Positions 390 to 49,708 of a DNA stretch of 56,461 bases are shown piece by piece; the first letter of the stretch is position 1; each line of letters starts with the position of its first letter. Both the position numbers and the translations under genes were made by a program. This stretch comes from an uncultured Gammaproteobacteria bacterium. Lineage in GTDB: Bacteria > Patescibacteriota > Microgenomatia > UBA8517 > UBA10165. The stretch is taken from NCBI GenBank assembly GCA_964564005.1, contig CAZLZK010000001.1, positions 3,588-60,048 of the forward strand, read 5' to 3'. The notes under the pieces are model-generated. The model was not told the origin of the DNA, searched no databases, and saw only the letters and a program-made list of their open reading frames with translations.

Positions 390-1517
390 CTATCTTTCTG
401 GCAGAGCGGTTTCTATTAATTTTAAACTTTCTTTGATTGATCTTTTCCAGGAAAAGTTTTGACTCCAAGCGATAGCTCCCTCTTGCAACCTCCCATATTC
501 TGCTTTATCCGCCAACAAACGCATTATGTTTTTCGCCAACTCTTCCGGAGTATTTTGGACACATAAAATCCCGCTCTGGCCGTCCTTTACCGAATCAATT
601 AGGCCGGCAGAGCGATAAGCAACAACCGGCGTGCCAACGCTATTTGCCTCAATATTGACCAATCCCCAACCCTCGTGTACCGATGGGTTTACCAAAATAT
701 GCCCCTTGGCTAAAAGTTCAAATTTCTTCTCTTGAGAAACAAATCCCCAGAATTTTACCTTGCCATCTAATCCTAAATGTTTTACTAAATCCATAATTTT
801 TCTGCCATAGGCTTCTGTCTCTGATTTTCCAACAACCCAAAATTGATAACGCACTTGTTTATTTAAAATTGAAAAGCACTTAATCGCGTCTTCGATCCCT
901 TTATCCTTTGACAAAACCCCCAAATAAATAACTGTCTGTTTTTTTTCTTTCGTTGGCATAGGCGAAGGTTTTTTAAGAACAACGCCATGTGGAACAACTG
1001 TAATATTTTCTTTTGGTATACCAAACTTTGCAACATCCTCCTTGGCTGACTGCGACCCTGTCATGAACGGAGTTTTTTTGTAAAGCAGGAATACTAATGG
1101 CTCGAAGATATACCCAACTACACCATAAATCCAGTTAATAGGCCAGGGAAATGGATTAAGAAACCAAACGTTGCGTGCAGTTTCCTGGATAACAGCCAGC
1201 TTCGGTTTTCTTACATACAACGGCGTAAAGAATGGCATGCCATGAAACTGATCAACAACGAGATCATACTCCCTTTTGTGACTCTGGTAATACGAAAATC
1301 CGGCAAATTGGACTCCAAGGTGGTGTTGATTACCGCTGTGGACAAGCTGCACTCCGTCTAGCCCCTCTTCTTTTGCACAACCCTTAAACCGAGAAGCAAA
1401 AAGAGTAACTGCGTGTCCCGCCCCAATCCACCCCTTCATATGCTCATGCATAACTTGTTCTGCCCCACCCGAAAGAGGATGCTTTGGGTCCCGCCAAGAA
1501 AAAACAAGAATATTCAT
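390..1517 (-). CDS. GT4 (GT-B fold) glycosyltransferase
   Basis: 375 aa ORF. C-terminal EGWGLVNIEANSVGTPVVAYRSAGLIDSVKDGQSGIL matches the E-x7-E nucleotide-sugar binding signature of GT4 enzymes. Confidence 0.9.
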   Translation of the reverse strand: MNILVFSWRDPKHPLSGGAEQVMHEHMKGWIGAGHAVTLFASRFKGCAKEEGLDGVQLVHSGNQHHLGVQFAGFSYYQSHKREYDLVVDQFHGMPFFTPLYVRKPKLAVIQETARNVWFLNPFPWPINWIYGVVGYIFEPLVFLLYKKTPFMTGSQSAKEDVAKFGIPKENITVVPHGVVLKKPSPMPTKEKKQTVIYLGVLSKDKGIEDAIKCFSILNKQVRYQFWVVGKSETEAYGRKIMDLVKHLGLDGKVKFWGFVSQEKKFELLAKGHILVNPSVHEGWGLVNIEANSVGTPVVAYRSAGLIDSVKDGQSGILCVQNTPEELAKNIMRLLADKAEYGRLQEGAIAWSQNFSWKRSIKESLKLIETALPER

Positions 1518-2389
1518 GTTGCCAAAAGGAAAACACCAGAAAGCATAACTACCGAACCTCCTAATCTTTCTTTTATATTGCGTTCCTTAAGGAATAACCA
1601 GCCAAGAAAGACGGTAAAAATCATGCTCAATTTGAAAACCGCAGTTGCAAAACCAAGATTTGTCAGACTAAAGGCGATAAAGGCGGACGCCTGACCTATG
1701 CCGCCTAGTAGACCCACTAATAAAAAGAGTAATAAAAATTTTCGGGCTATTCTCAGCGGATTTTTAACTTTCGAGCGTGCCGATAGTAAAACTGCAAAAA
1801 TAGCAATACTCATACTCATGCCGATTAAAGAGGCAAACGGTGGTACTTGCGGACTAGTGTGCAAAATCGCCGTTTTCTCAAAAATTGGTGTTACAGCCCA
1901 AATAAAATACGCGGCAATAGAATACTGCACTCCGCGGTTCATGGATAAACCTTTAAGCGGCACCAGGAAACCAGATTTAATTCTTGGAAGCTCAAGGAGA
2001 TAAGCCCCGAGAACTACTAGGAAAATTCCAACCCATCCCTTAAAATCTACAAGCTCTCCTAAAAAGAAAAAAGCTAGTATGGCGGTAAAGACCGGATTAA
2101 ACGCCGCAAGCGGGGCAACTAGCGAAACATCGGATATTTTTATGGCGCGGTAAGCAAGAACTGCAGCCAATACTCCCATAAGGCTGCTGGCAGCCACTGC
2201 CAGTATAAAAACTTCATCAACTTTTGGGATTTTGTAGAAGAAGAGAACTATAAATAGTAAGAATGGCAAAGAGAATAGGCCTCCCAAGAAAAGATAAAAA
2301 TACTCGTTTGTCTCCCGCATTATCTTCTTGGCAATGATAACGCCCAAAGAGCTTACAAGAGCAAAAGTTAATGCAAAAGGAAACCACAC
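1514..2389 (-). CDS. EamA/DMT-superfamily 10-TM transporter
   Basis: 291 aa, about 10 hydrophobic helices in two similar halves, which is the EamA duplication pattern. Overlaps the downstream GT4 gene by 4 nt. Confidence 0.75.
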   Translation of the reverse strand: MWFPFALTFALVSSLGVIIAKKIMRETNEYFYLFLGGLFSLPFLLFIVLFFYKIPKVDEVFILAVAASSLMGVLAAVLAYRAIKISDVSLVAPLAAFNPVFTAILAFFFLGELVDFKGWVGIFLVVLGAYLLELPRIKSGFLVPLKGLSMNRGVQYSIAAYFIWAVTPIFEKTAILHTSPQVPPFASLIGMSMSIAIFAVLLSARSKVKNPLRIARKFLLLFLLVGLLGGIGQASAFIAFSLTNLGFATAVFKLSMIFTVFLGWLFLKERNIKERLGGSVVMLSGVFLLAT

Positions 2390-2403
2390 GCCTCTATTGT
2401 ACC

Positions 2404-3177
2404 TTAAATGCGGGGTTCAAGACGTTCCCATTGACTTCTGTTGCCGTCATCGTAGTAGCGCAAAATTATTAGTCTATAAAAAACAGCTAATGTGTCCCAA
2501 GCTTGCCTTGCAACAGTCCGCCAACTGATGCGGCTCGTTTCTCTGTCGAAAGTTACCTCAATGGGGGCTTCGTAAATTCGGTCAAATCCAAGGCGTTTAG
2601 CAACGGCTAACATTTCTATATCCATAGCATATTTTTTAACCAATAATCTCGGCAAAATTTTCTTTAACACCTCTCGCTTAAAAATCTTTATTCCGCTTTG
2701 TGTATCGGTTATCGGAAGCCCAAACAAGATCTTGACACCCCAGTGGTACCCTATACTTAAGATGTGCCTTAAAAAAGGGTAATTCACGCGAGAGGCGGGG
2801 TGGCGCTTGGACCCAAGGATAATATCTGCGTTATACCACTCCATATGGGCCATAAGCATCATAATGCTCTTGGGGCTTATTTCCCTCCCAGCATCCAAGA
2901 AGGATACCAAAGCCCCCTTTGAACGAGCCATGCCGAAACGAACTGCATATCCTTTACCTTGGTTTTCTTTATATCCGACAGCTTGAATCCTGTCCAGTCT
3001 AACCTTTTTTGCTTCTCTTAAGGTATTATCAAGAGCGCCGTCTACAACACATATAATCTCGTAATCGTATTCTTTAAGTCCCTTGTCTAAAGTATCGGCA
3101 ATATTCTCCAAATCACGCTTGATAGTCTTTTCTTGCTTGTAGGCAGGGACGATAACTGACAACAATTTTTTACTCAT
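2404..3177 (-). CDS. GT2 glycosyltransferase, Dpm1/GtrB/ArnC-like polyprenyl-phosphate sugar synthase
   Basis: LSVIVPAYKQE ... VVDGALDNT ... TDTQSGIKIFKREVL, i.e. N-terminal GT-A Rossmann and DxD region plus the (D/T)TQxGFK motif of Dpm1-like enzymes. Confidence 0.8.
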   Translation of the reverse strand: MSKKLLSVIVPAYKQEKTIKRDLENIADTLDKGLKEYDYEIICVVDGALDNTLREAKKVRLDRIQAVGYKENQGKGYAVRFGMARSKGALVSFLDAGREISPKSIMMLMAHMEWYNADIILGSKRHPASRVNYPFLRHILSIGYHWGVKILFGLPITDTQSGIKIFKREVLKKILPRLLVKKYAMDIEMLAVAKRLGFDRIYEAPIEVTFDRETSRISWRTVARQAWDTLAVFYRLIILRYYDDGNRSQWERLEPRI

Positions 3178-4475
3178 TTATTACTTGTACCACTTAAGCC
3201 TCTGGGCGAAATGGAATGATGGTACGGGAAGTATACAAGAAGGCTAATAACCAGTAAAGTTGCTAATATAACTGAAATTTGCACGACTCTTAATATTGTA
3301 GGGTGAATAAACCAGATAAGGATCGCTTGCGAGAGCGCCGCCAAAACAAAAAGGCCTACAATCTTAGTTTTGCCAATGGAGAGGTAAAATTGAACAAGCA
3401 ATGTGGCAACCGCGAGCAAACCCATCAACAGGCCAAACCACCACAAATATGGCGCGCCGCTAATAAATTCCGGGCCAAATAGAATATTAACAGCAAGTCG
3501 AGGAAACAGGAGGTAAAACAAAACAATAATTACCGCGATCCCCAAAACGGCCAAAAAACTCAGGTAAAATATGTTATGGTACGGTTTTCCGTGCGAGTGC
3601 CGTTGGGCAATCAAAGGAAACATTGCTTGGGTCAAGGGTGAAGTACCGTAAAAGACAATTCGTCCTAAGATTGCCAACGAGGCATAAATTCCTGCATCCC
3701 CAGGAGAAAAAAAATGTTTTACCAGAACGACATCCGTTGAATACATTGAAGTCAAGGCAAAACCCTGAAGTAAAACTGGCACCGAATATTTAAGGAGTGG
3801 AGCAATATTCGGCCTTTCTCCTTTTTCCCCACGCAAATAGTTGCTTATTGAAGATCGTGTAAAAAAGAAGGCCAGGGCCGTACCCAAGAAGATTGCGAAT
3901 GCGGCTCCTAAAACTGACCATCCAAGTAGGATAAAAGCAATTGTCAAGAAAAGCCTTAACCACGTCTCGACGAGGAGACTTTTTACGTATTTTCCAAACT
4001 CAAGAATCCCTTGTAATACAGACCGCGCCGCATTAATCATTATGATAAATACAATTGATGGGCCAAGAAAGTAAATAGCAATTGGTTGTTGTAAGTTCAT
4101 AAAATTTGCCAAAAGAGGGGAAAGGAATAGGGTGATAATTCCTATGCCAACACCAACCCACAGACTCCATCGGTGAACCCATTTTGTAAAATTGGCAATG
4201 CCAGATTGACTTTTTGCTGCTGCTACAAAACGAACAATTGTCAAGCCAAAAGACATCTGAACCACCGCAACTAATCCCAAAATGGAAAAGATGGCAGCAA
4301 TATCTCCATAATAAACTTTCCCCAAAAGTCGGCCAGCAATTATGTGATAAATAAATTGGCCAAGGCTAGCAAGATTGGCACCAACAAGCATAATCATGCC
4401 CCCCGCAAATAAAGGATTATCAATAATTCGCTTGATATAGCTTGTCAACCTCAAATTCTTTGTCATGCTACCCAA
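3174..4475 (-). CDS. MOP-superfamily polysaccharide/oligosaccharide flippase (Wzx-like)
   Basis: 433 aa with 12 or more TM helices. N-terminal pattern (LVGANLASLGQFIYHIIAGRLLGKVYYGD) is typical of Polysacc_synt-type flippases. 4-nt overlap with the downstream GT2. Confidence 0.7.
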   Translation of the reverse strand: MGSMTKNLRLTSYIKRIIDNPLFAGGMIMLVGANLASLGQFIYHIIAGRLLGKVYYGDIAAIFSILGLVAVVQMSFGLTIVRFVAAAKSQSGIANFTKWVHRWSLWVGVGIGIITLFLSPLLANFMNLQQPIAIYFLGPSIVFIIMINAARSVLQGILEFGKYVKSLLVETWLRLFLTIAFILLGWSVLGAAFAIFLGTALAFFFTRSSISNYLRGEKGERPNIAPLLKYSVPVLLQGFALTSMYSTDVVLVKHFFSPGDAGIYASLAILGRIVFYGTSPLTQAMFPLIAQRHSHGKPYHNIFYLSFLAVLGIAVIIVLFYLLFPRLAVNILFGPEFISGAPYLWWFGLLMGLLAVATLLVQFYLSIGKTKIVGLFVLAALSQAILIWFIHPTILRVVQISVILATLLVISLLVYFPYHHSISPRGLSGTSNK

Positions 4476-5674
4476 TATCCTCGAATGAATAATGTTGTCT
4501 CTATGGCTAAAAGAATAACAGAAATGGCCAAAGATAGCACTTTAAAGACTCTCCCCCGTGAGGCGAGGAACAAGCCCAAAATGAGAAATAGAGGGAATAA
4601 GACCAAGACATAGCGAGGCAAAGAGCTAAAACTACCCGTCAGGGTCGGCAAAATATAGCCTAGAAATAGAAATAGTAGGTACGAGGGCCGTACCTTTTTT
4701 GTGTAGCCCCACACAAGGGAAAATAATCCTAAAAGTCCAATGGCTACTTCGAGTAAGATTGTTAAGTAAATTGGGTCAGATCTTGTAACAGTTACGAGCA
4801 TTTTTATATATCTCCAAAAAACTTGCGGCAAGAGAATAAGCTCCTGGGCTCGTTGCTCCCCAGACAATTGCTGCAAGTTATAAAACATAAACGGATCCCC
4901 AGTCGTGCTCTTTAAAAACAGCCTGTAAAAAATTAGTCCCAGAGGAACTAGAAGCGGCGACATAATCTGCTTTGTGTTTAGCCCACCCTCTTGTTTTCTA
5001 TGCTGCCACAACTCAACAATCATCGCCGGCAGCAGAAAAATTCCGACAAGGCGAGTTGCTGTGGAAAGCCCTCCCAATAGCCCCGCAAAGATCCACCTAT
5101 CTTTCCTTAAACAATAAAAAGCAGCTACAGTTAAAAGAAAAAATAGAGACTCTGTATAAAGAGCACCAAAATAGAAAGAGGTTGGAAAAGTAAGAAGAGA
5201 GATGAGAGAGATCGTGGCAATCTTTTTTGAATGGTCAAGACAAACCAACCGCCAAAATAAAAATAGGGCAACAAGGAAGGCAAGGTTGGAAATCGCAAGG
5301 CCTGAAAAAAGCAAGGGTAGGAAACCAAATCCGAAGAAGCCGCCAATAAAGCGAGCAAGAAGAGGGTAAAGAGGAAAAAATGCATGCGTTAGGGGTTGAT
5401 ATCCATGTTGTGCGATTCTCAGATAGTGTTCTCCATCAAAGTTCGCCCAACCCCAAAGAAGTGGATTGACAAGATAATTCTCAATGCCACCTCCTAAGAA
5501 ATGTCTACTCTTAAGAGGCAGTACTATTAGACCAATAAGGGCAAAGACAATCGTCCAAACTCGCCAGGCAAGAAAAAACAAAATAATTTGGGCGTTGTCT
5601 GGGTTACCCAACCACCTTCTGATAAACTTGAATAGTCTCATCCGCTGTCTTGGTCCAGGAAAAACGTTTAACAT
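4463..5674 (-). CDS. Polytopic membrane protein, PIG-V/Mannosyl_trans2-like GT-C candidate
   Basis: 403 aa, multi-TM. WANFDGEHYLRIAQHGY motif after TM1 is characteristic of PIG-V-like mannosyltransferases and is paralogous to 49805..50968 (VANFDGPHYIVVAKTLY). The true start may be the internal Met at 5641. Confidence 0.6.
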   Translation of the reverse strand: MLNVFPGPRQRMRLFKFIRRWLGNPDNAQIILFFLAWRVWTIVFALIGLIVLPLKSRHFLGGGIENYLVNPLLWGWANFDGEHYLRIAQHGYQPLTHAFFPLYPLLARFIGGFFGFGFLPLLFSGLAISNLAFLVALFLFWRLVCLDHSKKIATISLISLLTFPTSFYFGALYTESLFFLLTVAAFYCLRKDRWIFAGLLGGLSTATRLVGIFLLPAMIVELWQHRKQEGGLNTKQIMSPLLVPLGLIFYRLFLKSTTGDPFMFYNLQQLSGEQRAQELILLPQVFWRYIKMLVTVTRSDPIYLTILLEVAIGLLGLFSLVWGYTKKVRPSYLLFLFLGYILPTLTGSFSSLPRYVLVLFPLFLILGLFLASRGRVFKVLSLAISVILLAIETTLFIRGYWVA

Positions 5675-6635
5675 GCTCTAAACCTTTCCTGGATAGCTCT
5701 CTTTGCAGTTCAGGATCTTTGAGAACTTTTATAAGACCTGAAGCAATATCCGAAGTAACTCTAGGGTCAACGAAGACAGCCGCTCCTTCAGCAGTTTCAA
5801 CCAGCGCTTGCGTCTTAGCTCCGACAACAGGAGTTCCAGAGGCCATAGCTTCCAAAACCGGAAGGCCAAATCCTTCATAAAAAGATGGCTGACAATAGAT
5901 TGTTGCCAGATTATAGATTTTCACCAAATCCTCATCTGGGACAAAACCAACACGTGCAACGAGCGGATCACTCCCATATTTTTCAATAAACTTGCGAAAC
6001 TCTTTGTTCTCCGGATGAGACCAGTTAATATTCTCTTCCGCCGCCTGCTTGCCTACAATAACAAGCGGTGTGTTAATTTGTTTGCATGCTGCCGCAAGAG
6101 CTGAAAGATTTTTGTTGTAATTGACATCGCCAACGTAAAGAACAAATCTTTCTGGCAGATTGTACTTCTCTACACTCCTATGTAGGAGTGTAGAATTTCC
6201 TGACAGCTTACAGAAAATTCTAGCTGGCGCTAGTTGTGTAACATATACTCTTTCCTGTAACACGTCTAAAGACCTGATAATGTCTTTCTTTGATGTTTCA
6301 CTAATTGTGATAACAGCACTAACATTCTTTAATGCTCTCTTCTGTTTTAGAAAATTCAACTTTCCTTTAACCCCCGGAGGATACTGTTTTGGATAAATGA
6401 GTGGAATGGTGTCATAAATAGTCACAAATGTTGGTTGATCTTTTTTAATGTGAAGTGTATTAAGGAATAGGTCAAAATATGGATAATGCACGACATCGGC
6501 ATTTATTTCTTGATCAACCAGTTTTATGTCCTCTCTCTTTCTTAACTCCTGTTCCAAACTTCGAGCATAAGTCCCTATGCCCCGAACAACATGCCCAGCG
6601 TGTAAGGGTTTTGTATCAAAATAAACTTTAATCAT
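5604..6635 (-). CDS. GT4 (GT-B fold) glycosyltransferase
   Basis: 343 aa with EGFGLPVLEAMASGTPVVGAKTQALVETAEGAAVFV, the E-x7-E GT4 signature. Confidence 0.9.
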   Translation of the reverse strand: MIKVYFDTKPLHAGHVVRGIGTYARSLEQELRKREDIKLVDQEINADVVHYPYFDLFLNTLHIKKDQPTFVTIYDTIPLIYPKQYPPGVKGKLNFLKQKRALKNVSAVITISETSKKDIIRSLDVLQERVYVTQLAPARIFCKLSGNSTLLHRSVEKYNLPERFVLYVGDVNYNKNLSALAAACKQINTPLVIVGKQAAEENINWSHPENKEFRKFIEKYGSDPLVARVGFVPDEDLVKIYNLATIYCQPSFYEGFGLPVLEAMASGTPVVGAKTQALVETAEGAAVFVDPRVTSDIASGLIKVLKDPELQRELSRKGLEHVKRFSWTKTADETIQVYQKVVG

Positions 6636-7537
6636 TGAGTCAAAAATCTCCAGTAGGCCCTCGGGAAGCGAAGGGCTGAAAAAAATGAAAAGATTATCCC
6701 GGGAATTCCGTCCAGAATTCCTTTATGTCTTAACTGTGTCAGTAAGAACCAGTAAATAGGTTTTACCAAGAAATAATTAAGAAACTGTAGTGGGTTTCTT
6801 CCGACGCGATCTTGACTTAAATCTTGGGCTATCAAATCTACGTAACGGCTATTCTTTCGAAGATAACGACTAAAAGTCGGTGAGTCCATATGAATCAGGT
6901 TGTTTTGGAGCCACCCAACTCTCCCGTCAACAACGATCTGCTCGTGAACACTTTTGGCAGGAAAATAAGATTTGCTTTTCCTAACAAGTCTTATAACCCC
7001 GTCTGGATAAACTCCTCCGTGGCGCAAAAATTTGCCAAGAAAATAGTTTAGCCGCGGAATAAAAAATGCCGCAAACGGTCCACCTTTAGTGCCCATTGAG
7101 CCGTCACGCTTTTCCAGAAGCCTTTGGTGTCTTAAAAAAAGATTTCGATTTGGTAGACTTCCCTGATACTTCTCTATCTCTTCATCGGCCATCTCGATAA
7201 TCTTTCTTATTTCATCCGCAAGCTCAAGGGTTACCTGCTCATCTGCATCAAGCTGTAAAACCCACTCGTGGGATGCTGTCCGAAGCGCTTTTTCCTTGTT
7301 GATGTGGAAAATTGGCTCATTCACGACTTTTAACACACGTGCTCCATGTTTCTCTGCAATCTCGCGTGTCCTGTCAGAAGAAGATCCGTCCACAACAACA
7401 ATCTCATCTGCCAATCCTTTGACCGACTCAAGGCATTTGCCTACATTTTTCTCCTCGTTATGTGTAGCAAGAACTACAGAGAGCTTCGGTCTTTGTTCTT
7501 TGTTCTTTGTTCTTTGTTCTACCACTTTAGTTTGCAA
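6632..7537 (-). CDS. GT2 glycosyltransferase (paralog group with 29828..30595 and 31527..32426)
   Basis: LSVVLATHNEEKNVGKCLESVKGLADEIVVVDGSSSDRT ... QLDADE. TTG start at 7537 or GTG at 7525. Carries a heptanucleotide tract at codons about 6-16. Confidence 0.9.
   Translation of the reverse strand: MQTKVVEQRTKNKEQRPKLSVVLATHNEEKNVGKCLESVKGLADEIVVVDGSSSDRTREIAEKHGARVLKVVNEPIFHINKEKALRTASHEWVLQLDADEQVTLELADEIRKIIEMADEEIEKYQGSLPNRNLFLRHQRLLEKRDGSMGTKGGPFAAFFIPRLNYFLGKFLRHGGVYPDGVIRLVRKSKSYFPAKSVHEQIVVDGRVGWLQNNLIHMDSPTFSRYLRKNSRYVDLIAQDLSQDRVGRNPLQFLNYFLVKPIYWFLLTQLRHKGILDGIPGIIFSFFSALRFPRAYWRFLTQ
7490..7520. repeat. Heptanucleotide tandem tract (CTTTGTT) x4.4
   Basis: ggTCTTTGTTCTTTGTTCTTTGTTCTTTGTTCTacc. 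Lies between the start codon and the GT-A domain of the GT2 gene 6632..7537 (EQRTKNKEQRPK). Confidence 0.95.
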
Positions 7538-15999: not shown

Positions 16000-16007
16000 C
16001 TTTTTAT

Positions 16008-40067: not shown

Positions 40068-40589
40068 TTACTTTTCCGGAAGATTGCCGCAGGAGACATA
40101 AACCTTAGACTGGGCTGCGGACTTATGTATATTGACAGCAAGGGGTAACTCCGATCGCAATTTATCCATAGTCACGTCTAGAGTCGTCTCTGATTTCCCA
40201 TCAACAACATTCGTAAGCGGATACTTGATAGCTCCAGGGTTTGGGCAAGAACCCGTATGAATGTGTGCTGGTTGCGAGACTCCTTTTGGCGTGCCAGTTA
40301 GATCAAGAGTCACCGTAACCTTCCCGTCAACCTCTTTAAGCGTTGCGGTGCCCATCTCTTTGGAATTATTTTGTGCACCGAGAGTAACGGTTGCGGTTTT
40401 CATTGCTTCAAGCTTCATCTTCGCCTCTTGCTCCGCAACCTGGGCTGTATATAAGAAATAGGCAGCAACTCCAACAATTAATATTCCAGCAAGGGTAATT
40501 ATGTTCCTGTCGCTTCGGGATGTGCGAGTGGGCCTCGGGGTACTTCTGCGGGATCTTGTTGACCTTCCACTTTTCCTTCGGGCAGCCAT
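40068..40589 (-). CDS. Membrane-anchored exoprotein with a CHRD-like domain and an Arg/Ser-rich N-terminal tail
   Basis: 173 aa. MAARRKSGRSTRSRRSTPRPTRTSRSDRN tail, one TM, then QPAHIHTGSCPNPG ... LAVNIHKS ... YVSCGNL, resembling the aHIHxG / vNvH pattern of CHRD domains. Confidence 0.4.
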   Translation of the reverse strand: MAARRKSGRSTRSRRSTPRPTRTSRSDRNIITLAGILIVGVAAYFLYTAQVAEQEAKMKLEAMKTATVTLGAQNNSKEMGTATLKEVDGKVTVTLDLTGTPKGVSQPAHIHTGSCPNPGAIKYPLTNVVDGKSETTLDVTMDKLRSELPLAVNIHKSAAQSKVYVSCGNLPEK

Positions 40590-42376: not shown

Positions 42377-43945
42377 TTAAGGATTTTTAACGTTAAAGAT
42401 GTCTATCGCATCATCCGTTACTTCAAAAAGATATAGCGATTCTCTTGGTCCGTGGACAACAAACTCCCTCGTTCGCTTAGCTCTTTCGGCCTTTGGATAA
42501 GCTGCAAGAAGCTTCAACCCCAGATTCTCTGCTTTCCCTTCAAACCGCGATGAATTAACAACAAGGAATACTTTATCGCCCGCTTTTTTTGCCTCGATTA
42601 ATGAACTGTCGACGGTCGAAATCGACACGCCAACACCCTTAACAATAATACCTGGTATATTCGTAAGGTAAATTTGTAAGCCATCGGGCAGAGTCCCAAA
42701 GAACCCCTCGGTCCCAACGACAATGGTCTTATCGGGATTTCGATTATGCTCAGCCCTAAGAAACACCGCGACTTCGCGAATCCCTGTGCCCGCAGTCCAC
42801 TCCTCCAAGTACCCCGAACGCTCAACCCTTGGTAGAGGCGCTTCCTCTGGCTTGGTCAATAAAAGATAATCAATCCACAAAGAGGGAAGGGCAAAAAGGA
42901 TAAGCAGAATCCAGTACGAAGAGTTTTTAATCTTTTGAGTTAAGCCTTCAAAGCCGACTGCAGCAAGAGCAAAGATTGGTGGAATTGTAAATAAGATATA
43001 ACGAGCGGTGAACACCTTCGCGAGCTCTCCTTGAACAAGAAGCGGAAAGATAACCCAGAGAGCAAGAACTAAAAACTCCCGCCAGAAGCGGCGACCGCGG
43101 CGCAAAACCCCAACGACAGCTCCGATAAGTACGGTAGCTGGCAAAAGCACCCAGAACCATTCAATAATTTCCTTGAGATGAAATTGCAAAGGATCAAGAG
43201 GATTGGTCAAGAAATGCGAAAGTGGAAAAACATAATCTTTGTTACGAAGCGCAACCATATGGAAATTGGGTCCCAGCCGTAAGATGTTATAGATAACAAC
43301 TGCAATGATCCACGAAACCGCCCACAAAGCAAGAAGTTTAATCAAATGAAGAACTTTTCCGTCCAGAGGACGACCAGCCTTTGGCTGGGGCCAGGAGGAC
43401 ACCACAAGCGTTGTTGGTAAAAGTAAAAGAAAGAAAATCGCTGGAGATTTTGTAAGCCAGGCAGCTCCCAGAGAAAATCCTGTCAGCATCGCAAAGTCAA
43501 GGCGCAGTGTTTGTGAAGTTAGAATGCCAAAGTAAAGTGACCAGATACCAAAGGCTGTAAGCATGCTATCAGCCAACGCCATCCTGTCAAAGAAAACCGA
43601 AAAAGGAGAAATGGCATAAAAGAGTGCTCCCAGTAAGGCGGTCTTTCGAGAATGGAAAAGTCTCTCTGTCAATAAAAATATACCCAGGATTGTGGCAATG
43701 CCCGCTGCCACCGAAACCAACCGTCCCGAAACTAAGGGATCTTGAAAAACTTTGAGAAAAGGTATAACAAACCACATAAAAAGAGGTTGTTTACCGTCGG
43801 AAAGTGGCAAGAACCGAAGTCCGGGTTCAGCTCTCATCACTTGGGCCCATCTTATGTAAATCGCCTCATCCGCAAAAATCGGGATTGAGAAAATGTTATA
43901 CGTCCTAAGAAAAACAGCCAAAACAAGAATGGCTACACCAACCAA
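42377..43945 (-). CDS. GT-C fold membrane glycosyltransferase, ArnT/GT83-like
   Basis: 522 aa. TTG start, TM1 then IFADEAIYIRWAQ (acidic loop motif), about 11 TM, soluble C-terminal domain. Confidence 0.65.
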   Translation of the reverse strand: MVGVAILVLAVFLRTYNIFSIPIFADEAIYIRWAQVMRAEPGLRFLPLSDGKQPLFMWFVIPFLKVFQDPLVSGRLVSVAAGIATILGIFLLTERLFHSRKTALLGALFYAISPFSVFFDRMALADSMLTAFGIWSLYFGILTSQTLRLDFAMLTGFSLGAAWLTKSPAIFFLLLLPTTLVVSSWPQPKAGRPLDGKVLHLIKLLALWAVSWIIAVVIYNILRLGPNFHMVALRNKDYVFPLSHFLTNPLDPLQFHLKEIIEWFWVLLPATVLIGAVVGVLRRGRRFWREFLVLALWVIFPLLVQGELAKVFTARYILFTIPPIFALAAVGFEGLTQKIKNSSYWILLILFALPSLWIDYLLLTKPEEAPLPRVERSGYLEEWTAGTGIREVAVFLRAEHNRNPDKTIVVGTEGFFGTLPDGLQIYLTNIPGIIVKGVGVSISTVDSSLIEAKKAGDKVFLVVNSSRFEGKAENLGLKLLAAYPKAERAKRTREFVVHGPRESLYLFEVTDDAIDIFNVKNP

Positions 43946-43978
43946 GGCTACCCTTCCCCATTTAGATTTGACATTTGC

Positions 43979-44005: not shown

Positions 44006-44016
44006 AGTTTTAAGTT

Positions 44017-44793
44017 TTATTTGTATTCTCCTTTTATCGCATACCAGCGAATCCGTAAAATATCTTTTATTGCGTCAATGGAATCTTTAATAAGTTGAAC
44101 GCGCTCTGTTCCAACATATTGCCATTCTACCGGAACCTCGGCAATTTTAAATTCCATTTTTTTTGCAAGATAAAGCGTTTCAACGTCAAATCCTGCATGT
44201 ACTGCTGCGCCGTGAGCTCTCATCTTTTCCCAAGACTCCATCATGCGTGGAAAGATTGCCTCTCTGGATTTTTTATCAAAAGCCTTAAATCCGCATTGAG
44301 TATCCGAGAGGGGGAGTCCTAATATTACGCTGCGCAAAAACGTAAACCCCCAGGCGGCAAGTTTCCGCAAGATTGGAGCCCCCTTCCTTCCGGTTCGCGA
44401 TCCAATTACAACATTATACCGTTCGGCAAATTTGGGCAGGAACTTTTCTACCTGACCAATCGGAGTTGCCTGATCCATATCAGTAAAAAGAGCAATATCA
44501 CCTTTCGCTGCAAGAAGACCAGTCATAACCGCTAAAGCTTTTCCGCCATGTTCATTTTCAACAAGACACCATTTCTCTTTTCCTCTAATCCAATTCTTTA
44601 CCAATATTCTGGTATCATCCGTTGAACCGTCATCAACTATAATCACCTCATACGAAAAATTAACCGTTCTTAGGTATGTTGAAACCTGTGCCAACACCCC
44701 TTTTTTAATGTTTCCAACTTCGTTGTATGCAGGAATGACTATTGATAAGAAAATCTTGTTTCGTCGAGGACTCGAAAATAAATATGGCTTCAT
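44017..44793 (-). CDS. GT2 glycosyltransferase, Dpm1/GtrB-like polyprenyl-phosphate sugar synthase
   Basis: LSIVIPAYNEVGNI ... VIIVDDGSTDDT ... SDTQCGFKAFDKKS. The Met at 44793 (MKPYLF) lies 5 nt after the upstream stop at 44798. The track extension to 44871 lies inside the upstream gene. Confidence 0.85.
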   Translation of the reverse strand: MKPYLFSSPRRNKIFLSIVIPAYNEVGNIKKGVLAQVSTYLRTVNFSYEVIIVDDGSTDDTRILVKNWIRGKEKWCLVENEHGGKALAVMTGLLAAKGDIALFTDMDQATPIGQVEKFLPKFAERYNVVIGSRTGRKGAPILRKLAAWGFTFLRSVILGLPLSDTQCGFKAFDKKSREAIFPRMMESWEKMRAHGAAVHAGFDVETLYLAKKMEFKIAEVPVEWQYVGTERVQLIKDSIDAIKDILRIRWYAIKGEYK

Positions 44794-44797
44794 GGAT

Positions 44798-46336
44798 TTA
44801 TCTACTTCCAATGCGGGTGCGTCTTTGTACAGTAATGCCACCAAATTGCACTTCATCTTCCACCACCCCAATCCCTTTCTGTCGGGCTAGCCACGCCTCA
44901 AGTCTCTCAGGGTGTGGTGGATCAACTTCATATAAAGTATAAAGAAGAGGAGTTTCTCGGTCGAGCACCATTCCACAAAGACTTTCTCCACATCGAATAT
45001 TTGTCTGCCAAAGGAAGAGATAGTCATAAGCATAAGGGATAACAGGAGGAACATAAGAGTCGATATTAAACTCCGTCCCTCTTGCGTCACCCAATATCCA
45101 GTCAACAGCCTGCATCTCGTTACCCAAACTTATGTGTAGGGGGCCATCTGCCCCTCCTGTTATAAAATTCTTGAGAACAGTAAAGTTGCCCTGAAAAAAG
45201 AGGCCAAAAAATAAAGCTACGACAATCACTCCGCCAACGTCTCTTTTTACCAATAACGAGAGCAGTACCGAAAAGAGGAGAACAAAAACAAGATAAGAGG
45301 CGGTGAAGTAATAGCCGTAAACATTACCGTAGTTCCCTTGAAAAAAAAGCATGCCGATAAGCGGGAAAATAAAAACCAAAAATGCCACGATAAATTTTTG
45401 GTTTCTCAAAAGGCTTTTAAGACTCAACAAACACGCAAGAAGCCCCAAGATTGCCATAAATATCCACGGGCGTGAGGAGACGGGTTGTAATTTAGAAAAA
45501 AACAACTGGTAGTAAGAATCTAGCCGCACCTTAACAACTTCCCAAAAGGATACCCTAAAACTTTCTTCCTGAAAAAGAAACTTTTTAATTGCCGAAAGTA
45601 ATACTCCATTGTGACGTATATCAAAAAGAACCTGTGGAATAAGTGTTATAAAAAATGCCAATAGTGACCAAAAGAGAATTTTCCTGTTTGGTAAATTCTT
45701 GCGTTGCCAAATAGCCAGGACTGCAATCGCCGGGAAATAGAAAATCTCAGCGGCACTCCCAAATTGCATTGCTAGCCCTAAAAGGAATGAGATCGGGAGC
45801 CAGCTCCATCTTTTCCCTTCCATGACCTGAAACATAAAAAATAGAAGCAGCATACTGATAAGAAACATCGGCGTGGGATTCGATAACCACCGGGAGTCAA
45901 GCATGAAGTAAAAAGAGAAACTGGCAATTATAACAGCGATTATTCCCGAAAGTCTTCCTTCAATTTGTACCGCAAGAACATAGAGTACAAAAATTGCCAG
46001 AACACTAAGGACAGCTAGAAAATTAGCCGGCCAAACTGGATCTCCTCCACCAAGAAGATAAAAGGGGGCAATAAGCCAGTAGTACCATGGGCCCCTAAAA
46101 ATTCCTTCTATTCCGGTTGTCGGCCCAACCAAAAAGAACTTTCCCTCATGCCAAAACCGCCAAATAACCAATGCATCCCGACCTTGATCATAATAAAACC
46201 TCAATATCTGGTCAGTCCTGTAAACCCGCACAAAAAGAGCTGCAGCCAGTAAAACTGTTAATAAGCAATATGTCTTTGGATGGCTGTGCACCTCCCGTTT
46301 GCAAGCTTTGTACCAAGCCAAGATTTTATTCTTCAT
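44798..46336 (-). CDS. Polytopic membrane protein, GT-C-like (family C, paralog 2)
   Basis: 512 aa. FYYDQGRDALVIWRF ... LVGPTTGIEGIFRGPWYYWLIAP. ATGA overlap with the upstream DHH gene. Confidence 0.6.
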   Translation of the reverse strand: MKNKILAWYKACKREVHSHPKTYCLLTVLLAAALFVRVYRTDQILRFYYDQGRDALVIWRFWHEGKFFLVGPTTGIEGIFRGPWYYWLIAPFYLLGGGDPVWPANFLAVLSVLAIFVLYVLAVQIEGRLSGIIAVIIASFSFYFMLDSRWLSNPTPMFLISMLLLFFMFQVMEGKRWSWLPISFLLGLAMQFGSAAEIFYFPAIAVLAIWQRKNLPNRKILFWSLLAFFITLIPQVLFDIRHNGVLLSAIKKFLFQEESFRVSFWEVVKVRLDSYYQLFFSKLQPVSSRPWIFMAILGLLACLLSLKSLLRNQKFIVAFLVFIFPLIGMLFFQGNYGNVYGYYFTASYLVFVLLFSVLLSLLVKRDVGGVIVVALFFGLFFQGNFTVLKNFITGGADGPLHISLGNEMQAVDWILGDARGTEFNIDSYVPPVIPYAYDYLFLWQTNIRCGESLCGMVLDRETPLLYTLYEVDPPHPERLEAWLARQKGIGVVEDEVQFGGITVQRRTRIGSR

Positions 46337-47328
46337 ATTGTTTTAAGATATCCTTCTAGCTTCTCTCTGATTCTTCTTGTCGCCTCCTCAAACTCTCCAT
46401 AGACCCTGAAGCCTGCTGCTACTTTATGTCCGCCGCCCCCAAGTTCTTTGGCTATATCAGCAACGTTAACATTTGTGCGTGAACGAAGACTTCCGTGAAC
46501 TGTGCCTTTTTCCTCCTCCACAAGGAACATCCCAAAATCCGTCCCTTCTATGTTGGCAAGAAAAGTTTCAGATGTGTTTTGATTAACTACTGGACCCCCT
46601 AACGTTTCAAGTTGAGAAAAAGGGATAGCTGCCCAGACAAAACAGTAGCCACCGACTTTTTCTATCTTCATGCTCTCCAAGACCTTAGCCCAGAACTTTG
46701 CAGTCGCGAAAGATATCCTCTGGTTAAGATTAAATGCTATGGCCGGAAAGGAGGCGCCTTTTTGGAGAAGACCGCTGGCCACCGTGAAGGTGTCTGGGCT
46801 CACCCCAGAAGCAAATCGAAAGGTTCCGGTGTCTCCGGCGATGCCAGTCATGAGACAAGTAGCAACTTCGGAGGTCACCTCAACCCCCCAATCAGAGAAA
46901 AGATTGTATAAAACTTCGCCCAGAGAGCCAATTTTATCGTCGACCAAATTGATACCACCGTATTTCTCATTAAGGTAATGATGATCGATATTAACTATAA
47001 AGAGGCTCGGGGGCGGTCGAAAGACCTCTTTGGTCAACATTCCAAGTGACGCAGAATCCACAGCCAAGAGGAGGTCGAATCCATCTAGCTTCTTGCTGTT
47101 TAGGTCTTCTCGCTGTATCTTTGCAAAACCCGGAAGAAATTCAAGGTTTTTAGGTAATCCATCGGTTGAAACAATCTCCACGTCCTTCTCTCGGCCGGTC
47201 AAAATTTGGTACAGGGCGAGGTTAGAGCCAACGCTATCTGGGTCTGGACTCCGGTGAACCACCAGAAGAATTTTGTGGGAGGCATCAATTTTCTCAATAA
47301 TTTGCTTCGACTCTTGGTAGTATGTCAT
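46333..47328 (-). CDS. DHH/DHHA1-family phosphoesterase (NrnA-like oligoribonuclease/pAp phosphatase type)
   Basis: 331 aa. HRSPDPDSVGS (DxD), NIDHHYLN (DHH), GGGHKVAAGF (DHHA1 GGGH). Confidence 0.85.
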   Translation of the reverse strand: MTYYQESKQIIEKIDASHKILLVVHRSPDPDSVGSNLALYQILTGREKDVEIVSTDGLPKNLEFLPGFAKIQREDLNSKKLDGFDLLLAVDSASLGMLTKEVFRPPPSLFIVNIDHHYLNEKYGGINLVDDKIGSLGEVLYNLFSDWGVEVTSEVATCLMTGIAGDTGTFRFASGVSPDTFTVASGLLQKGASFPAIAFNLNQRISFATAKFWAKVLESMKIEKVGGYCFVWAAIPFSQLETLGGPVVNQNTSETFLANIEGTDFGMFLVEEEKGTVHGSLRSRTNVNVADIAKELGGGGHKVAAGFRVYGEFEEATRRIREKLEGYLKTI

Positions 47329-48929
47329 TGTCCTTCGGGATTGTGAACAAGCTTAAAAACTCTCACGCCTTTCTGTTCCCATTCTTTTTCTATCTTCGCC
47401 CAGCCGAAGTTGGCAATTTCTGCTTTTTCGTGATTTATGGGCTTACATGGCTCTGGATTACCCGGAGAGGTAGTGTCTTCGCAAACAACGAAAAGCTGGT
47501 CTGTTATCGTCTCTTTTGAGCGTTGTGCGTCGATCTCCCGAACCGGAGCCTTCCAGAGCTCGAAGAAGTAAAGATATCCTTCCTCGTAATTTCTCTTAGC
47601 AATAAGCCCAAAGTTAAACGGTTTATCGCCCGCTTCATTCATTATTCTCCTATCAATTTCCTGAACGCGTTGCAGTTGTCGCTGCGGCGGATCTTTTAAT
47701 GGATTTTGCTGGAGGTTAATCCAGATTAACAGTATCCCTATCACTATCACCAACCACTTTCTATCTGTCCATAACTCCTGTAAAATCGCGCCCACGAGAA
47801 GAAACGGGGCTGCGAACATAAACTCAAAATAGTGGCTATAAATAGCTTGTTTATAAAGCCCAAGACCAAGAAGCCCTACTACGATCCACAATGAAGTAAG
47901 TCTTAGGGCGGCAAGTTGAACCTTCTTTTGATTGTTGTGCCACTTACGACCTAACCATAAAGCGCCGATAACAAGAACTATTGCAACAAGAGCACTCCAT
48001 TCTTTTTCTCTACCTACGAGAAGATTGGTTACAACATCGTTTTGCCAAAGAGGCCAGAGGTCGGGAATGGCGTTCCACGGCCTCGCCGAAACCGTTGTTT
48101 GCCGCTCGGTGAAAAACTTAACCATCGCTCCCCAGTTTCGGAAAGCATGTTTTGCGTCAAAGAAGACCAAGGGAGACATCGAAAAAGCGAAAAGCGAAAA
48201 AGCGAAAAGCGAAAAGATAAAAAACTTTTTCCGTATAAGCAAAGCTTGACTGCGTGTAAGCAAAGCTTGACTGCGTATTGCGTATTGCGTATTACGCAGA
48301 GTGAGTAGCCAAAAAATGCCGATCGTTGGAAGCAGTAAAAGGCCAAGGTAATGCGACTGCAGAACTGCGGCAAAAGATACACCAAGCACCAACAGCCATT
48401 TCCACTCCCTCTTTTGCCAAACCCGCCAAATGGCAAAAATAGACAAAAGGGCAAAGAAAGGCATTATGTTAGGATTCCAAGAATGCCTTGCGTGAAGAAT
48501 TACAACTGGGGAGATAGCAAATAAAAGGCTTGCGAAAAAGGCTGCAACTTTCCCAAACCACTCACGCGCAGCAAACCAGGTGAGAAAAACCGTTGCTACA
48601 CTTAAGAGCGCCACAAAGGTGGCCGGGCCCACAGGAGAAAAACGCCAAAGAGCCAAGAATGGGGCAATAAGATAATAGTATAAGGGCCCCAAATACATAT
48701 CCCCAATTGAAGTACGGGGCCCAACAAACATAAGATCAAAATCTGTTAAGAAACGCCGAACAACTCTCACATCCCGACCTTCATCTCCCAAAAACGTCAG
48801 ATATCCATCAATCTTCCAAAGGCGCAGTGCGGCAGCTAACAGCAAAACAGCTAACAGCAAAACAGCCTCTCTTTTATTTTCCAGAATCCGTTCTCTGATA
48901 CTTGTGAATTTTACCTTGTAACCTTTCAT
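47325..48929 (-). CDS. Polytopic membrane protein, GT-C-like (family C, paralog 3)
   Basis: 534 aa. FLGDEGRDVRVVRRF ... FVGPRTSIGDMYLGPLYYYLIAP. Contains four different in-frame tandem repeats. Confidence 0.6.
   Translation of the reverse strand: MKGYKVKFTSIRERILENKREAVLLLAVLLLAAALRLWKIDGYLTFLGDEGRDVRVVRRFLTDFDLMFVGPRTSIGDMYLGPLYYYLIAPFLALWRFSPVGPATFVALLSVATVFLTWFAAREWFGKVAAFFASLLFAISPVVILHARHSWNPNIMPFFALLSIFAIWRVWQKREWKWLLVLGVSFAAVLQSHYLGLLLLPTIGIFWLLTLRNTQYAIRSQALLTRSQALLIRKKFFIFSLFAFSLFAFSMSPLVFFDAKHAFRNWGAMVKFFTERQTTVSARPWNAIPDLWPLWQNDVVTNLLVGREKEWSALVAIVLVIGALWLGRKWHNNQKKVQLAALRLTSLWIVVGLLGLGLYKQAIYSHYFEFMFAAPFLLVGAILQELWTDRKWLVIVIGILLIWINLQQNPLKDPPQRQLQRVQEIDRRIMNEAGDKPFNFGLIAKRNYEEGYLYFFELWKAPVREIDAQRSKETITDQLFVVCEDTTSPGNPEPCKPINHEKAEIANFGWAKIEKEWEQKGVRVFKLVHNPEGQ
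48181..48216. repeat. 15-bp tandem repeat (GAAAAAGCGAAAAGC) x2.4
   Basis: Encodes FSLFAFSLFAFS in 47325..48929. Confidence 0.9.
48236..48277 (+). repeat. 21-bp repeat family, 2 tandem units (TAAGCAAAGCTTGACTGCGTG/TA)
   Basis: Units at 48236-48256 and 48257-48277 with 20 of 21 positions identical. Encodes RSQALLTRSQALLI in 47325..48929. Confidence 0.95.
48271..48298. repeat. Heptanucleotide tandem tract YTGCGTA x3 followed by TTACGCA
   Basis: CTGCGTA TTGCGTA TTGCGTA TTACGCA, directly abutting the 21-bp units. The last two units form the dyad TGCGTA-t-TACGCA. Confidence 0.85.
48833..48866. repeat. 15-bp tandem repeat (CAGCTAACAGCAAAA) x2.3
   Basis: Exact duplication at 48833-48847 and 48848-48862. 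Encodes AVLLLAVLLLA in TM1 of 47325..48929. Confidence 0.9.
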
Positions 48930-49708
48930 TTTAAAATTTTACCCTCCCGAAGGGAGTCCCCGCTTTTTAATTTTCTCCACGGCCTTGTCACAAAAAGTCT
49001 TACAAGTCCTTTAATATCTCCCCATGCGGTCTTTGCAACTTTCACGGTCGAGCGAGGATCGTCTCGCCAAACAATAGGAACTTCCGTAATTTTAAATCCT
49101 GCTTTGTCGGCAATAATTAAAAGCTCTGAATCAAAGAACCATGCAGTATCTTCTATGTAAGGTAGAAGCTTTTGTGCTGCTTCCCTCTTTATTGCCTTAA
49201 ACCCACATTGCGCATCCCAAAAACTTGTCCAGAAAAGAAGTTTTATTAAAAGATTGTAGCCGCGAGACATAATCTCTCGGGTTAGAGTCCTCCCATAAAC
49301 TTTTGCCCCCCGCTTAAGCCGTGAGCCAATTGCAATATCGCTACCATTTTTAATCGCCTCAACTATGGAGGACAAAAACCGGAGGTCTGAGGAGAGATCA
49401 ACGTCCATGTAAACCAATATGTCAGATTTTCGAGAAAGCCAAGTCCTCTTAAGTGCTCCACCTCGTCCTGGACGAGGGACCAGGACATACTTGATACCTG
49501 GGTTCTTTTTAACAAGCTCTTTTGACACCTGTGCTGTTCTATCATAAGACGGTCCATTATCTCCAATAATAATTTCCCAGTCATAGTCCTTAAAATTATC
49601 TTTGAGGAACTTATGAAGTCTTGGAATGTTACGCGGCAGATCTTTCTCCTCGTTGTAAACAGGCACGACCACGCTCAGGGTCATTCTTTTCTCCATCTTG
49701 AAAATCAT
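48926..49708 (-). CDS. GT2 glycosyltransferase, Dpm1/GtrB-like polyprenyl-phosphate sugar synthase
   Basis: LSVVVPVYNEEKDL ... EIIIGDNGPSYDRT ... WDAQCGFKAIKREA. Alternative starts at 49696 or 49684. First gene of the minus-strand array. Confidence 0.85.
   Translation of the reverse strand: MIFKMEKRMTLSVVVPVYNEEKDLPRNIPRLHKFLKDNFKDYDWEIIIGDNGPSYDRTAQVSKELVKKNPGIKYVLVPRPGRGGALKRTWLSRKSDILVYMDVDLSSDLRFLSSIVEAIKNGSDIAIGSRLKRGAKVYGRTLTREIMSRGYNLLIKLLFWTSFWDAQCGFKAIKREAAQKLLPYIEDTAWFFDSELLIIADKAGFKITEVPIVWRDDPRSTVKVAKTAWGDIKGLVRLFVTRPWRKLKSGDSLREGKILK
48943..48968 (-). repeat. Conserved hairpin-containing motif of about 25 nt, copy 2 (GT2 to GT-C junction)
   Basis: Plus strand CCTCCCGAAGGGAGTCCCCGCTTTTT. 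On the mRNA strand it reads GCGGGGACUCCCUUCGGGAGGG, with the GGAGG part 13 nt upstream of the ATG at 48929. Confidence 0.7.

Follow-up and report, generated by a model that had tools for sequence, protein, structure and literature searches.

The window, a 56,461-nt stretch of contig CAZLZK010000001.1 (assembly GCA_964564005.1), is occupied from position 390 to 49708 by 39 consecutive open reading frames (ORFs; g01 to g39), all on the minus strand, which form the glycosylation array considered here; the next gene, at 49805-50968, lies on the plus strand. The ORFs are packed as closely as the initial annotation had described, with a widest gap of 71 nt over the 38 junctions and a total ORF length (49,797 nt) that exceeds the span of the array (49,319 nt). 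ATGA overlaps had been cited at 1514/1517, 3174/3177, 6632/6635, 10828/10831, 29828/29831, 46333/46336, 47325/47328 and 48926/48929; all eight are present, and a 4-nt overlap of this kind is possible at 15 of the 38 junctions. Such tight packing, with its 15 possible overlaps, suggests that the genes may be co-expressed. The G+C content of the window is even (37-46%), and Rfam and tRNA scans of the window found nothing.

Pfam scans of all products give the composition of the array as 20 polytopic membrane proteins, nine family 2 glycosyltransferases (GT2; g03, g07, g18, g20, g24, g25, g26, g35 and g39), three family 4 glycosyltransferases (GT4; g01, g06 and g23), two MOP flippases (g04 and g28) and one EamA/DMT protein (g02), the same counts as had been proposed from the ORF translations. 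The remaining products are one S-adenosylmethionine (SAM)-dependent methyltransferase (g21), one DHH/DHHA1 phosphoesterase (g37) and two small unassigned proteins (g15 and g32). The claim that these 49 kb hold no sugar-nucleotide synthesis genes also stands, as no nucleotidyltransferase, epimerase or dehydratase family matched any of the 39 products, and neither a sugar-nucleotide synthesis family nor a priming phosphoglycosyltransferase found a match in the window.

Polytopic proteins and the g27 family

The assignment of all 20 polytopic proteins as glycosyltransferases of the C fold (GT-C)-like type is supported by Pfam, paralogy, profile alignment and structure prediction. They are 398-836 aa long, close to the 400-840 aa first estimated, and 15 of the 20 reach the Pfam gathering score of a GT-C family, while four are assigned through BLAST or hhalign and g27 through its AlphaFold2 (AF2) model. 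The gathering score of PMT_2 (PF13231) is reached by g08, g09, g10, g13, g14, g29, g31, g34, g36 and g38, as well as by g40 beyond the array, and is missed by g11 (17.4 bits) and g19 (20.1 bits), both of which are full-length paralogs of passing members by BLAST. YfhO (PF09586) is reached by g12 and g22, PTPS_related (PF10131) by g33, PIG-V/Mannosyl_trans2 by g05, and GT87 (PF09594) by g17 only; g16 and g30 have no match of their own, and hhalign connects them with g17 at 99.6% and 100% probability. With hhalign profiles built from orthologs in related loci, g19, g29, g31, g33, g34 and g36 aligned to the g14 family at 96-99%, compared with 0.1% for a MOP-flippase negative control. NCBIfam gave no match for g11, g16, g19, g27, g30 and g31, nor for the small proteins g15 and g32.

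An acidic motif after the first transmembrane segment is seen in 20 of 20 polytopic proteins, as had been claimed, and in the alignment of the g14 family (family A; 40 sequences) D39/E40 are invariant; these acidic residues are predicted to lie in the first extracytoplasmic loop. A soluble C-terminal domain had been ascribed to most of the proteins, which agrees with a crude hydropathy call in which 100 aa or more follow the last predicted transmembrane segment in 13 of the 20. AF2 models were made for g14 and g27, the other 18 GT-C assignments coming from Pfam, BLAST or hhalign. The g14 model has a predicted local distance difference test (pLDDT) score of 92, and its top 33 PDB matches in Foldseek are all GT-C enzymes; ArnT (5ezm) is matched both in sequence (E 5.6e-4) and in structure (TM-score 0.53), and PimE structures are weak matches. 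PDB sequence searches with g33, g38, g22 and g27 returned nothing useful, g14 being the only query with a match (ArnT), and the Pfam STT3 match of g14 (32 bits) lies beneath its stronger PMT_2 match. The possibility that the polytopic proteins are transporters is ruled out by Pfam, by hhalign with its flippase control and by Foldseek, in which transporters appear only below probability 0.5.

BLAST sorts these proteins into at least five paralog families, as the initial annotation had suggested. Family A, of the PMT_2 type, comprises g08 (7527-9158; 37 bits, with a C-terminal soluble domain), g09 (9161-10831; PMT_2/PMT, 41.6 bits), g10 (10828-12540; 47.3 bits), g13 (16008-17696; 43.1 bits), g14 (17710-19392; 67.1 bits) and, more distantly, g34 (42377-43945; PMT_2/PMT, 57.3 bits), all bit scores being those for PMT_2; the L003 orthologs of g08, g09 and g13 are 75%, 73% and 77% identical. 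The YfhO/PTPS_related-like family B holds g11 (12533-14236), which matches g33 at 2e-63 and g12 at 5e-59, together with g12 (14233-16029; YfhO 33.2 bits against a cut-off of 28.5, and 38% identical to g33) and g33 (40637-42355; PTPS_related 29.1 bits against 26.4). Family C consists of g19 (23326-24921; BLAST to g36/g38 about 1e-17, hhalign to the g14 family 97.3%), g29 (35659-37170; PMT_2 27.5 bits against 26.1, hhalign to the g14 family 98.5%), g36 (44798-46336; PMT_2 44.7 bits) and g38 (47325-48929; PMT_2 51.4 bits). In the GT87-like family D, g17 (21159-22547) scores 31.1 bits against a cut-off of 25, g16 (19966-21162) aligns to the g17 family with an hhalign E of 6e-24 and has orthologs with weak GT87 matches, and g30 (37130-38485) matches g17 in BLAST at 1e-22. 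Family E pairs g05 (4463-5674; PIG-V/GT76-like, Mannosyl_trans2 45 bits against 22.4, FDGEHY motif after the first transmembrane segment) with g40 (49805-50968, plus strand), a 21st GT-C-like gene (PMT_2/GT87; PMT_2 29.1 bits) that is divergently oriented just beyond the reported interval, carries an FDGPHY motif and matches g05 at 1e-9 to 1e-12. The singletons are g22 (26369-28879; an 836-aa YfhO-family protein, 75.2 bits, hhalign to the g33 family 99.4%), g31 (38513-40027; PMT_2 27.1 bits, hhalign to the g14 family 96.9%) and g27.

The product of g27 (32447-34165) has no Pfam, NCBIfam or PDB-sequence match. Its AF2 model, built from a 35-sequence alignment (pLDDT 85, pTM 0.86), has a GT-C fold: the top 18 PDB matches in Foldseek are all GT-C enzymes, namely STT3, DPY19, PglB, AglB, AftA and ArnT (E 6e-11 to 5e-5, TM-score about 0.5), and D53 is invariant across the 35 family sequences. 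An exhaustive profile search places 1576 clusters at 50% identity in this family. Of all genes in the cluster g27 is conserved best; it occurs in single copy, shows 46-76% identity within the group and is usable as a marker gene for the cluster. An oligosaccharyltransferase of the STT3/PglB type was considered for g27 and rejected, as there is no STT3 Pfam match and no WWDYG among the invariant residues. STT3 heads the Foldseek lists of both g27 and the PMT_2-type g14, and its ranking is thus generic, indicating the GT-C fold and not an oligosaccharyltransferase.

Many members of the g27 family (P0242, P0245, P0260 and P0282) have, at the N-terminus, an additional extracytoplasmic domain of about 450-590 aa, for which there is no Pfam model and only a weak DUF3863 match; in L018 this domain is a separate 691-aa ORF directly upstream of the g27 homolog. 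The Wzx-like MOP flippase g28 (34119-35609; Polysacc_synt_3 179.5 bits) is immediately upstream of g27 in all relatives examined, and P0282 is a triple fusion of a MOP flippase, the extra domain and g27. This invariant adjacency and the fusion link the flippase functionally to g27.

Conservation across the Microgenomates

The nearest named homologs of g14 and g27 belong to Candidatus Blackburnbacteria, Woesebacteria and other Microgenomates, and the source, a groundwater organism, is therefore most plausibly a Candidatus Blackburnbacteria-like member of the Microgenomates (Candidate Phyla Radiation, CPR, or Patescibacteria). An exact look-up of the g14 sequence gave short Logan contigs only. 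A Microgenomates-type cluster is also present at about 30 loci (L015, L019, L020, L025, L029 and about 25 others) in metagenome-assembled genome (MAG) records with titles of the form 'uncultured Gammaproteobacteria bacterium isolate binchicken_... / SRP..._co...'; compared with the g27 of the window, the homologs there show 46-57% identity, and the organism names of the records seem to be placeholders or labelling errors.

Gene order is collinear in more than ten independent assemblies from NCBI, ENA and Logan, including the closed Woesebacteria genomes CP066693.1 and CP055307.1, and the overlapping loci jointly cover g38 through g01 together with the left flank. The stretch from g38 to g14 is covered in CP066693.1 (L010/L027), g35 to g18 in a 686-kb Blackburnbacteria contig (L008), g33 to g18 in a Logan contig (L092), g23 to g04 in GCA_030647365.1 (L003), and g10 to g01 in GCA_040961665.1 and a Logan contig (L093 and L094), of which L094 also has a convergent methyltransferase matching the partial ORF at 1-369 of the window. 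Synteny in independent assemblies and the even G+C content exclude a chimeric assembly, so that the concern that the array might be stitched together from different genomes, raised with its first description, did not hold.

A scan with one genome per species found a g27 relative in 216 genomes. Around g27, in the 55 loci (species) with full 10-kb flanks (21.7 kb each), the median counts are 8 GT-C-like genes (range 4-11), 5 GT2, 1 GT4 and 1 MOP gene, and 97% of them share one strand. In the closely studied loci of Blackburn-, Woese- and Amesbacteria the gene order recurs. Judged by this synteny, the array is a conserved hallmark of the Microgenomates and not a one-contig oddity, and the run of 39 co-directional genes of one functional class is not a product of chance, the arrangement having been inherited.

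Within this shared order, family-A orthologs are 46-77% identical, with one ortholog per paralog, compared with 28-36% between paralogs. One-to-one orthologs that are more alike than paralogs indicate that the duplications are old and that each copy has been kept; with their orthologs retained individually, the paralogs are probably non-redundant and distinct in function. The conserved core is formed by g28, g27, three GT2, a GT4, the YfhO-family g22, the methyltransferase, a further GT2, g19 and g18, and the periphery varies. The g12-g11 pair, inside the family-A block in the window, adjoins g33 in L092 (1-2974), the closest relative, and in Woesebacteria (L069) and is missing at the window's position in L003, which indicates the relocation of two genes; g30 is missing from L092, and a further PMT_2 gene is present in L005. 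Two orthologs are split: that of g09 into 247 + 188 aa in an NCBI assembly (L006, 16852-18259), and that of g22 into 380 + 410 aa in L008 (15217-17664), the latter being intact at 815 aa in L009, a Logan assembly of the same sequence. These splits are frameshifts or assembly errors. L008 (Blackburnbacteria GCA_016183565.1) also carries, at 3771-6883 between the g33 and g31 orthologs, opposite-strand genes for an FKBP, a PD-(D/E)XK nuclease, a HicA toxin and an N6/N4 DNA methylase, an insertion that looks like a small mobile or defence island.

Proposed glycan assembly and its rivals

Three of the nine GT2, g03 (2404-3177), g35 (44017-44871; 88 bits) and g39 (48926-49708; 88.7 bits, the first gene of the array), form one subfamily by BLAST, and their nearest solved structures are the Pyrococcus dolichyl-phosphate mannose (Dol-P-Man) synthase (DPMS, 5mlz), GtrB and ArnC. 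The best structure match of g39 is 5mlz (E 1.7e-19, residues 8-231), followed by ArnC and GtrB. In NCBIfam, PgfS ranks first for all three, and ArnC and a dolichyl-P-hexose transferase are within the top four for g35 and g39 and are much lower or absent for g03. These proteins are candidate polyprenyl-phosphate-monosaccharide synthases that may supply the donor step. Relatives of the array furthermore encode GT2-GT-C fusions of three kinds, each in a single ORF: g18-like with g17-like (L005/L006/L007, 6124-8223), g35-like with g33-like (L021, 15169-17673) and g18-like with g12-like (L079, 18208-20646). Such fusions may connect cytoplasmic with extracytoplasmic steps in the Rosetta-stone sense, although read-through by sequencing error could also produce them. 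With DPMS/GtrB/ArnC-like GT2 nearby and GT2 fused to GT-C domains, the GT-C enzymes of the array may use polyprenyl-phosphate-linked donors.

The reading we favour, with slightly better than even confidence, is that the array is an envelope-glycan assembly supercluster of Blackburnbacteria-like Microgenomates that works as a stepwise assembly line. From the observed gene content, folds, paralogy, conservation and fusions we infer, for genes that may be co-transcribed, the donors, an order of steps, an acceptor and a product as follows. On the cytoplasmic face, g03, g35 and g39 would load monosaccharides on polyprenyl phosphate. The other six GT2, g07 (6632-7537; 65.3 bits), g18 (22505-23338; 90.3 bits), g20 (24860-25738; 67.3 bits), g24 (29828-30595; 75.7 bits), g25 (30598-31530; 66.5 bits) and g26 (31527-32426; 89.7 bits), would build a lipid-linked oligosaccharide or polymer together with the three GT4, g01 (390-1517; 375 aa, Glycos_transf_1 113.6 bits), g06 (5604-6635; 103 bits) and g23 (28800-29990; 86.2 bits), and with the methyltransferase g21 (25735-26448; Methyltransf_11 83.5 bits), which is kept in the cluster core. 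The MOP proteins g04 (3174-4475; Polysacc_synt 53.2 bits) and g28, and possibly the EamA protein g02 (1514-2389), would then flip lipid-linked sugars to the outer face, where some 20 non-redundant GT-C enzymes would each be responsible for adding or transferring one particular sugar or linkage, with g27 and its adjoining flippase g28 as candidate handlers of the flipped oligosaccharide. The product would be a complex glycan on a surface layer, pili or a wall polymer. In ultrasmall groundwater CPR cells, which lack an outer membrane, pili and a periodic surface layer have been seen (PMC7906910), and both are thus plausible acceptors.

For the third of these steps, g02 is a 10-transmembrane protein (EamA 106.5 bits, TPT 47.9 bits) and a candidate polyprenyl-phosphate-sugar flippase or transporter, and the triad of g04 (MOP), g03 (synthase-like GT2) and g02 is conserved in L093 and L094. 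It recalls the pairing of ArnC with ArnE/F. Among the other GT2, g07, g24 and g26 form one BLAST subfamily and g18, g20 and g25 another; g18 resembles the TIGR01556 rhamnosyltransferase subfamily in NCBIfam (79.5 bits, below cut-off), and the nearest structures of g26 are GmaR and SunS, over the N-terminal GT-A domain only. The true start of g23 is probably the ATG at 29831, given the ATGA overlap there.

Several observations weigh against an assembly line of this kind. The NCBIfam scores of g03, g35 and g39 (44-66 bits) are to be compared with equivalog cut-offs of 370-529, all GT2 matches in the array being far below theirs, and no C-terminal transmembrane helices are predicted in the three proteins, in which they differ from GtrB and ArnC. 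A priming phosphoglycosyltransferase, GtrA, Wzy/Wzz and sugar-nucleotide enzymes are neither in the window nor recurrent near the core in relatives, and without priming and sugar-nucleotide enzymes in either place the pathway is incomplete as seen. A search of 60 relatives for recurrent extra genes near the core, with a priming transferase, sugar-nucleotide enzyme or acceptor in mind, found each cluster of unmatched ORFs in 7 loci at most. Counts of promoters and terminators are at about chance level, only the 20-40 kb segment being modestly above the shuffle means, so that a single operon is unsupported. The products of g37, g32 and g15 have no obvious role in the pathway, and sequence does not tell one glycan from many acceptors for the 20 GT-C enzymes.

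This last point leads to the main rival, which we regard as rather unlikely, namely that the array is a set of parallel and independent GtrB/CsbB-flippase-GT-C systems of the Gtr, YfhO/CsbB, Pgf or Arn type, each placing single sugars on an acceptor of its own (a pilin, a surface-layer protein, a sortase substrate, a lipid or a wall polymer, for example). PMT_2 and YfhO are, by Pfam name, classic single-sugar transferases, three GT2 are DPMS/GtrB/ArnC-like, each GT2-GT-C fusion pairs one synthase-like domain with one GT-C domain, and paralog blocks have been gained, lost and moved, as with the relocated g11/g12, the g30 missing from L092 and the additional PMT_2 gene of L005. However, three synthase-like GT2 would have to serve about 20 GT-C enzymes, the core combines a Wzx-like flippase with 4-5 ordinary GT2/GT4 and a methyltransferase as is typical of oligosaccharide building, and there is no flippase of the GtrA type: the GtrA family (PF04138) matches none of the 39 products, and the packing leaves no room for an extra ORF.

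A second rival, less likely in view of the one-to-one orthology and in our view quite improbable, would have the array be a diversification reservoir of alternative, partly redundant and in some cases inactive paralogs, of which a subset is active and which vary the glycan against phages or for host recognition. The differences in copy number and position among relatives, the split g09 and g22 orthologs and the mobile or defence-like genes inside the L008 array would fit such a role. Set against these are one-to-one orthologs at 46-77% identity across genera with conserved catalytic acidic residues, and a gene order kept over 55 species; the splits may be assembly errors, given the intact g22 ortholog in L009, and no repeats or invertible elements turned up, though no search aimed at them was made. 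That the array is an artefact, either a chimera or a misannotation of transporters or unrelated folds, is hardly credible, since the general risk of metagenome contigs and three proteins without a Pfam match stand against collinear loci in the NCBI, ENA and Logan assemblies, the closed genomes among them, an even G+C content and fold or profile evidence of GT-C for every polytopic protein.

A bolder version of the assembly line, possible though doubtful, is that g27 is the founding member of an undescribed GT-C family and would be a new bacterial oligosaccharyl- or polysaccharyl-transferase coupled to a Wzx-type flippase, within the largest bacterial assembly line of about 20 GT-C enzymes, which would resemble that of the endoplasmic reticulum (ER) and take up about 5% of a genome of less than 1 Mb. 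If this were true, the complex surface glycan would probably have a central part in keeping the envelope of these episymbionts intact or in attaching them to their hosts.

The proposed assembly line can be likened to the mycobacterial arabinogalactan/lipoarabinomannan (LAM) machinery, in which EmbA/B/C, AftA-D and PimE use decaprenyl-P-arabinose or polyprenyl-P-mannose donors (Rv3779-Rv3809c region). In both, genes for several different GT-C enzymes lie together with those for cytoplasmic GT-A/GT-B enzymes and with flippase-like genes, and the array may share the mycobacterial logic of a wall glycan extended outside the membrane from polyprenyl-P-monosaccharide donors; AftA, EmbB, AftD and PimE are among the structural matches of g27 and g14, and GT87, the PimE family, is present as g17. 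The initial annotation had put characterised glycan loci at one to three GT-C enzymes, which slightly understates the roughly six of the mycobacterial arabinogalactan cluster; the 20-21 of the array are still about three times more, in a genome that is probably five times smaller. Unlike the mycobacterial cluster, the array has no UbiA, DprE or Glf-type donor genes and no sequence match to the Emb/Aft families (GT53, GT85 and GT89), and its host is a monoderm CPR bacterium without mycolic acids.

Likeness is also seen to the three-component systems, that is GtrA/GtrB/GtrC, CsbB-GtcA-YfhO of teichoic acid glycosylation, PgfS-PgfM1-PgfE-PgfM2 of S. mutans and ArnC-ArnE/F-ArnT: the array has GT2 nearest to GtrB, ArnC, DPMS and PgfS, GT-C enzymes of the YfhO and PMT_2 (ArnT-type) families, and an EamA/DMT protein adjoining a synthase-like GT2 as ArnE/F accompanies ArnC. 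These systems differ from it in having 1-2 GT-C enzymes and not 20, and the array differs in turn by its lack of GtrA, by GT2 that have no predicted transmembrane helices and score below the NCBIfam equivalog cut-offs, and by an extra Wzx-type oligosaccharide branch.

A battery of distinct GT-C enzymes is otherwise a feature of glycosylation in the ER lumen (ALG3/9/12/6/8/10, STT3, PMT, DPY19 and PIG-V, with Dol-P-Man and Dol-P-Glc, the glucose counterpart, as donors), where each GT-C forms a single linkage, drawing on polyprenyl-P-sugars from DPM1/ALG5-type GT2, after a cytoplasmic lipid-linked oligosaccharide has been flipped. STT3, DPY19, ALG9, ALG12, ALG3 and Pmt4 are among the structural matches of the g27 and g14 models, and g05 is a PIG-V-like member. 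In contrast to the ER, the genes are bacterial and contiguous and show no STT3 membership, WWDYG being absent and the STT3 Pfam match being only a weaker overlap on g14. The loci of Wzx/Wzy type for O-antigen and capsule are similar in having Wzx-like flippases, of which the array has two, among GT2, GT4 and a methyltransferase. They differ in that Wzy, Wzz, WaaL, Bac_transf and MraY-type families have no match in the window, where g04 and g28 alone represent the Wzx-like side, and that the flippase partner in the array is the GT-C-fold g27, to which a flippase is fused in P0282.

The array is an extreme undescribed variant and not a new principle. Its enzyme classes are already known, and its genes stand in public databases with generic names; what is new is its scale, its conservation over a whole CPR group, the g27 family without annotation and the tie between g27 and its flippase. 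No published description of GT-C-rich clusters in CPR bacteria was found, within a partial journal coverage that leaves room for an earlier one, and Méheust et al. 2019 (PMC6744442) state no more than that the protein families enriched in Microgenomates are for the most part hypothetical and frequently consist of membrane proteins. Closed genomes of relatives are 0.81-0.92 Mb, and the array would take up about 5% of the genome if its size equals theirs; a reduced, host-dependent lineage keeps about 49 kb, and more in relatives, of packed glycosylation genes. The individual conservation of ancient paralogs argues for strong selection on a complex surface glycan, and the array suggests an elaborate and so far undescribed surface sugar coat. 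The cluster offers a gene-level handle on the envelope chemistry of CPR bacteria, whose surface layer and pili have been seen by cryogenic transmission electron microscopy (PMC7906910), and makes multi-step extracytoplasmic glycan assembly of the ER style testable in bacteria.

Accessory genes and flanks

Among the three genes set apart above, g37 (46333-47328) encodes an NrnA-like DHH/DHHA1 phosphoesterase (NrnA 82 bits, below cut-off) that is probably not a glycosylation enzyme; it is flanked on both sides by ATGA overlaps, and homologs lie upstream of the core, in the same orientation, in 16 related loci. The small membrane-anchored protein g32 (40068-40589), with an Arg/Ser-rich N-terminus and one transmembrane segment, matches CHRD at 20.7 bits, below cut-off, and may be outside the pathway; its L092 ortholog is 81% identical. 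The 194-aa g15 (19389-19973) has N- and C-terminal transmembrane segments and no Pfam match, and is always between the g16 and g14 orthologs, as seen in L003 and L005.

The left boundary of the one-strand run is set by a convergent plus-strand ORF at 1-369, the C-terminal part of a SAM-methyltransferase-like frame that is open and runs off the window, and that shares 45% identity with the methyltransferase annotated by Pfam at the corresponding place in L094. Orthologs of g01 (60-62% identity) end the array in L093 and L094. Beyond them lie DUF5667 proteins, a GT4, a PMT_2 protein of 689-705 aa, a GT2, an epimerase and a DegT aminotransferase, and some relatives have a short-chain dehydrogenase/reductase, an epimerase or a DegT aminotransferase beyond g01; given these glycosylation genes, the supercluster may extend past the left edge of the window. 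Among the contigs listed for the window's own g14 and g02 proteins, the longest measures 80,112 bp.

The right flank (49805-56461) begins with g40 and continues with a 142-aa ORF without annotation, a membrane protein weakly resembling alpha/beta hydrolases, AcpS (52434-52817), an MFS_2 sugar-type transporter (52817-54112) and an alpha/beta hydrolase. From about 54.9 kb a plus-strand ORF, open for 520 codons, leaves the right end of the window and appears by eye, with no profile scan, to be AMP-dependent-ligase-like.

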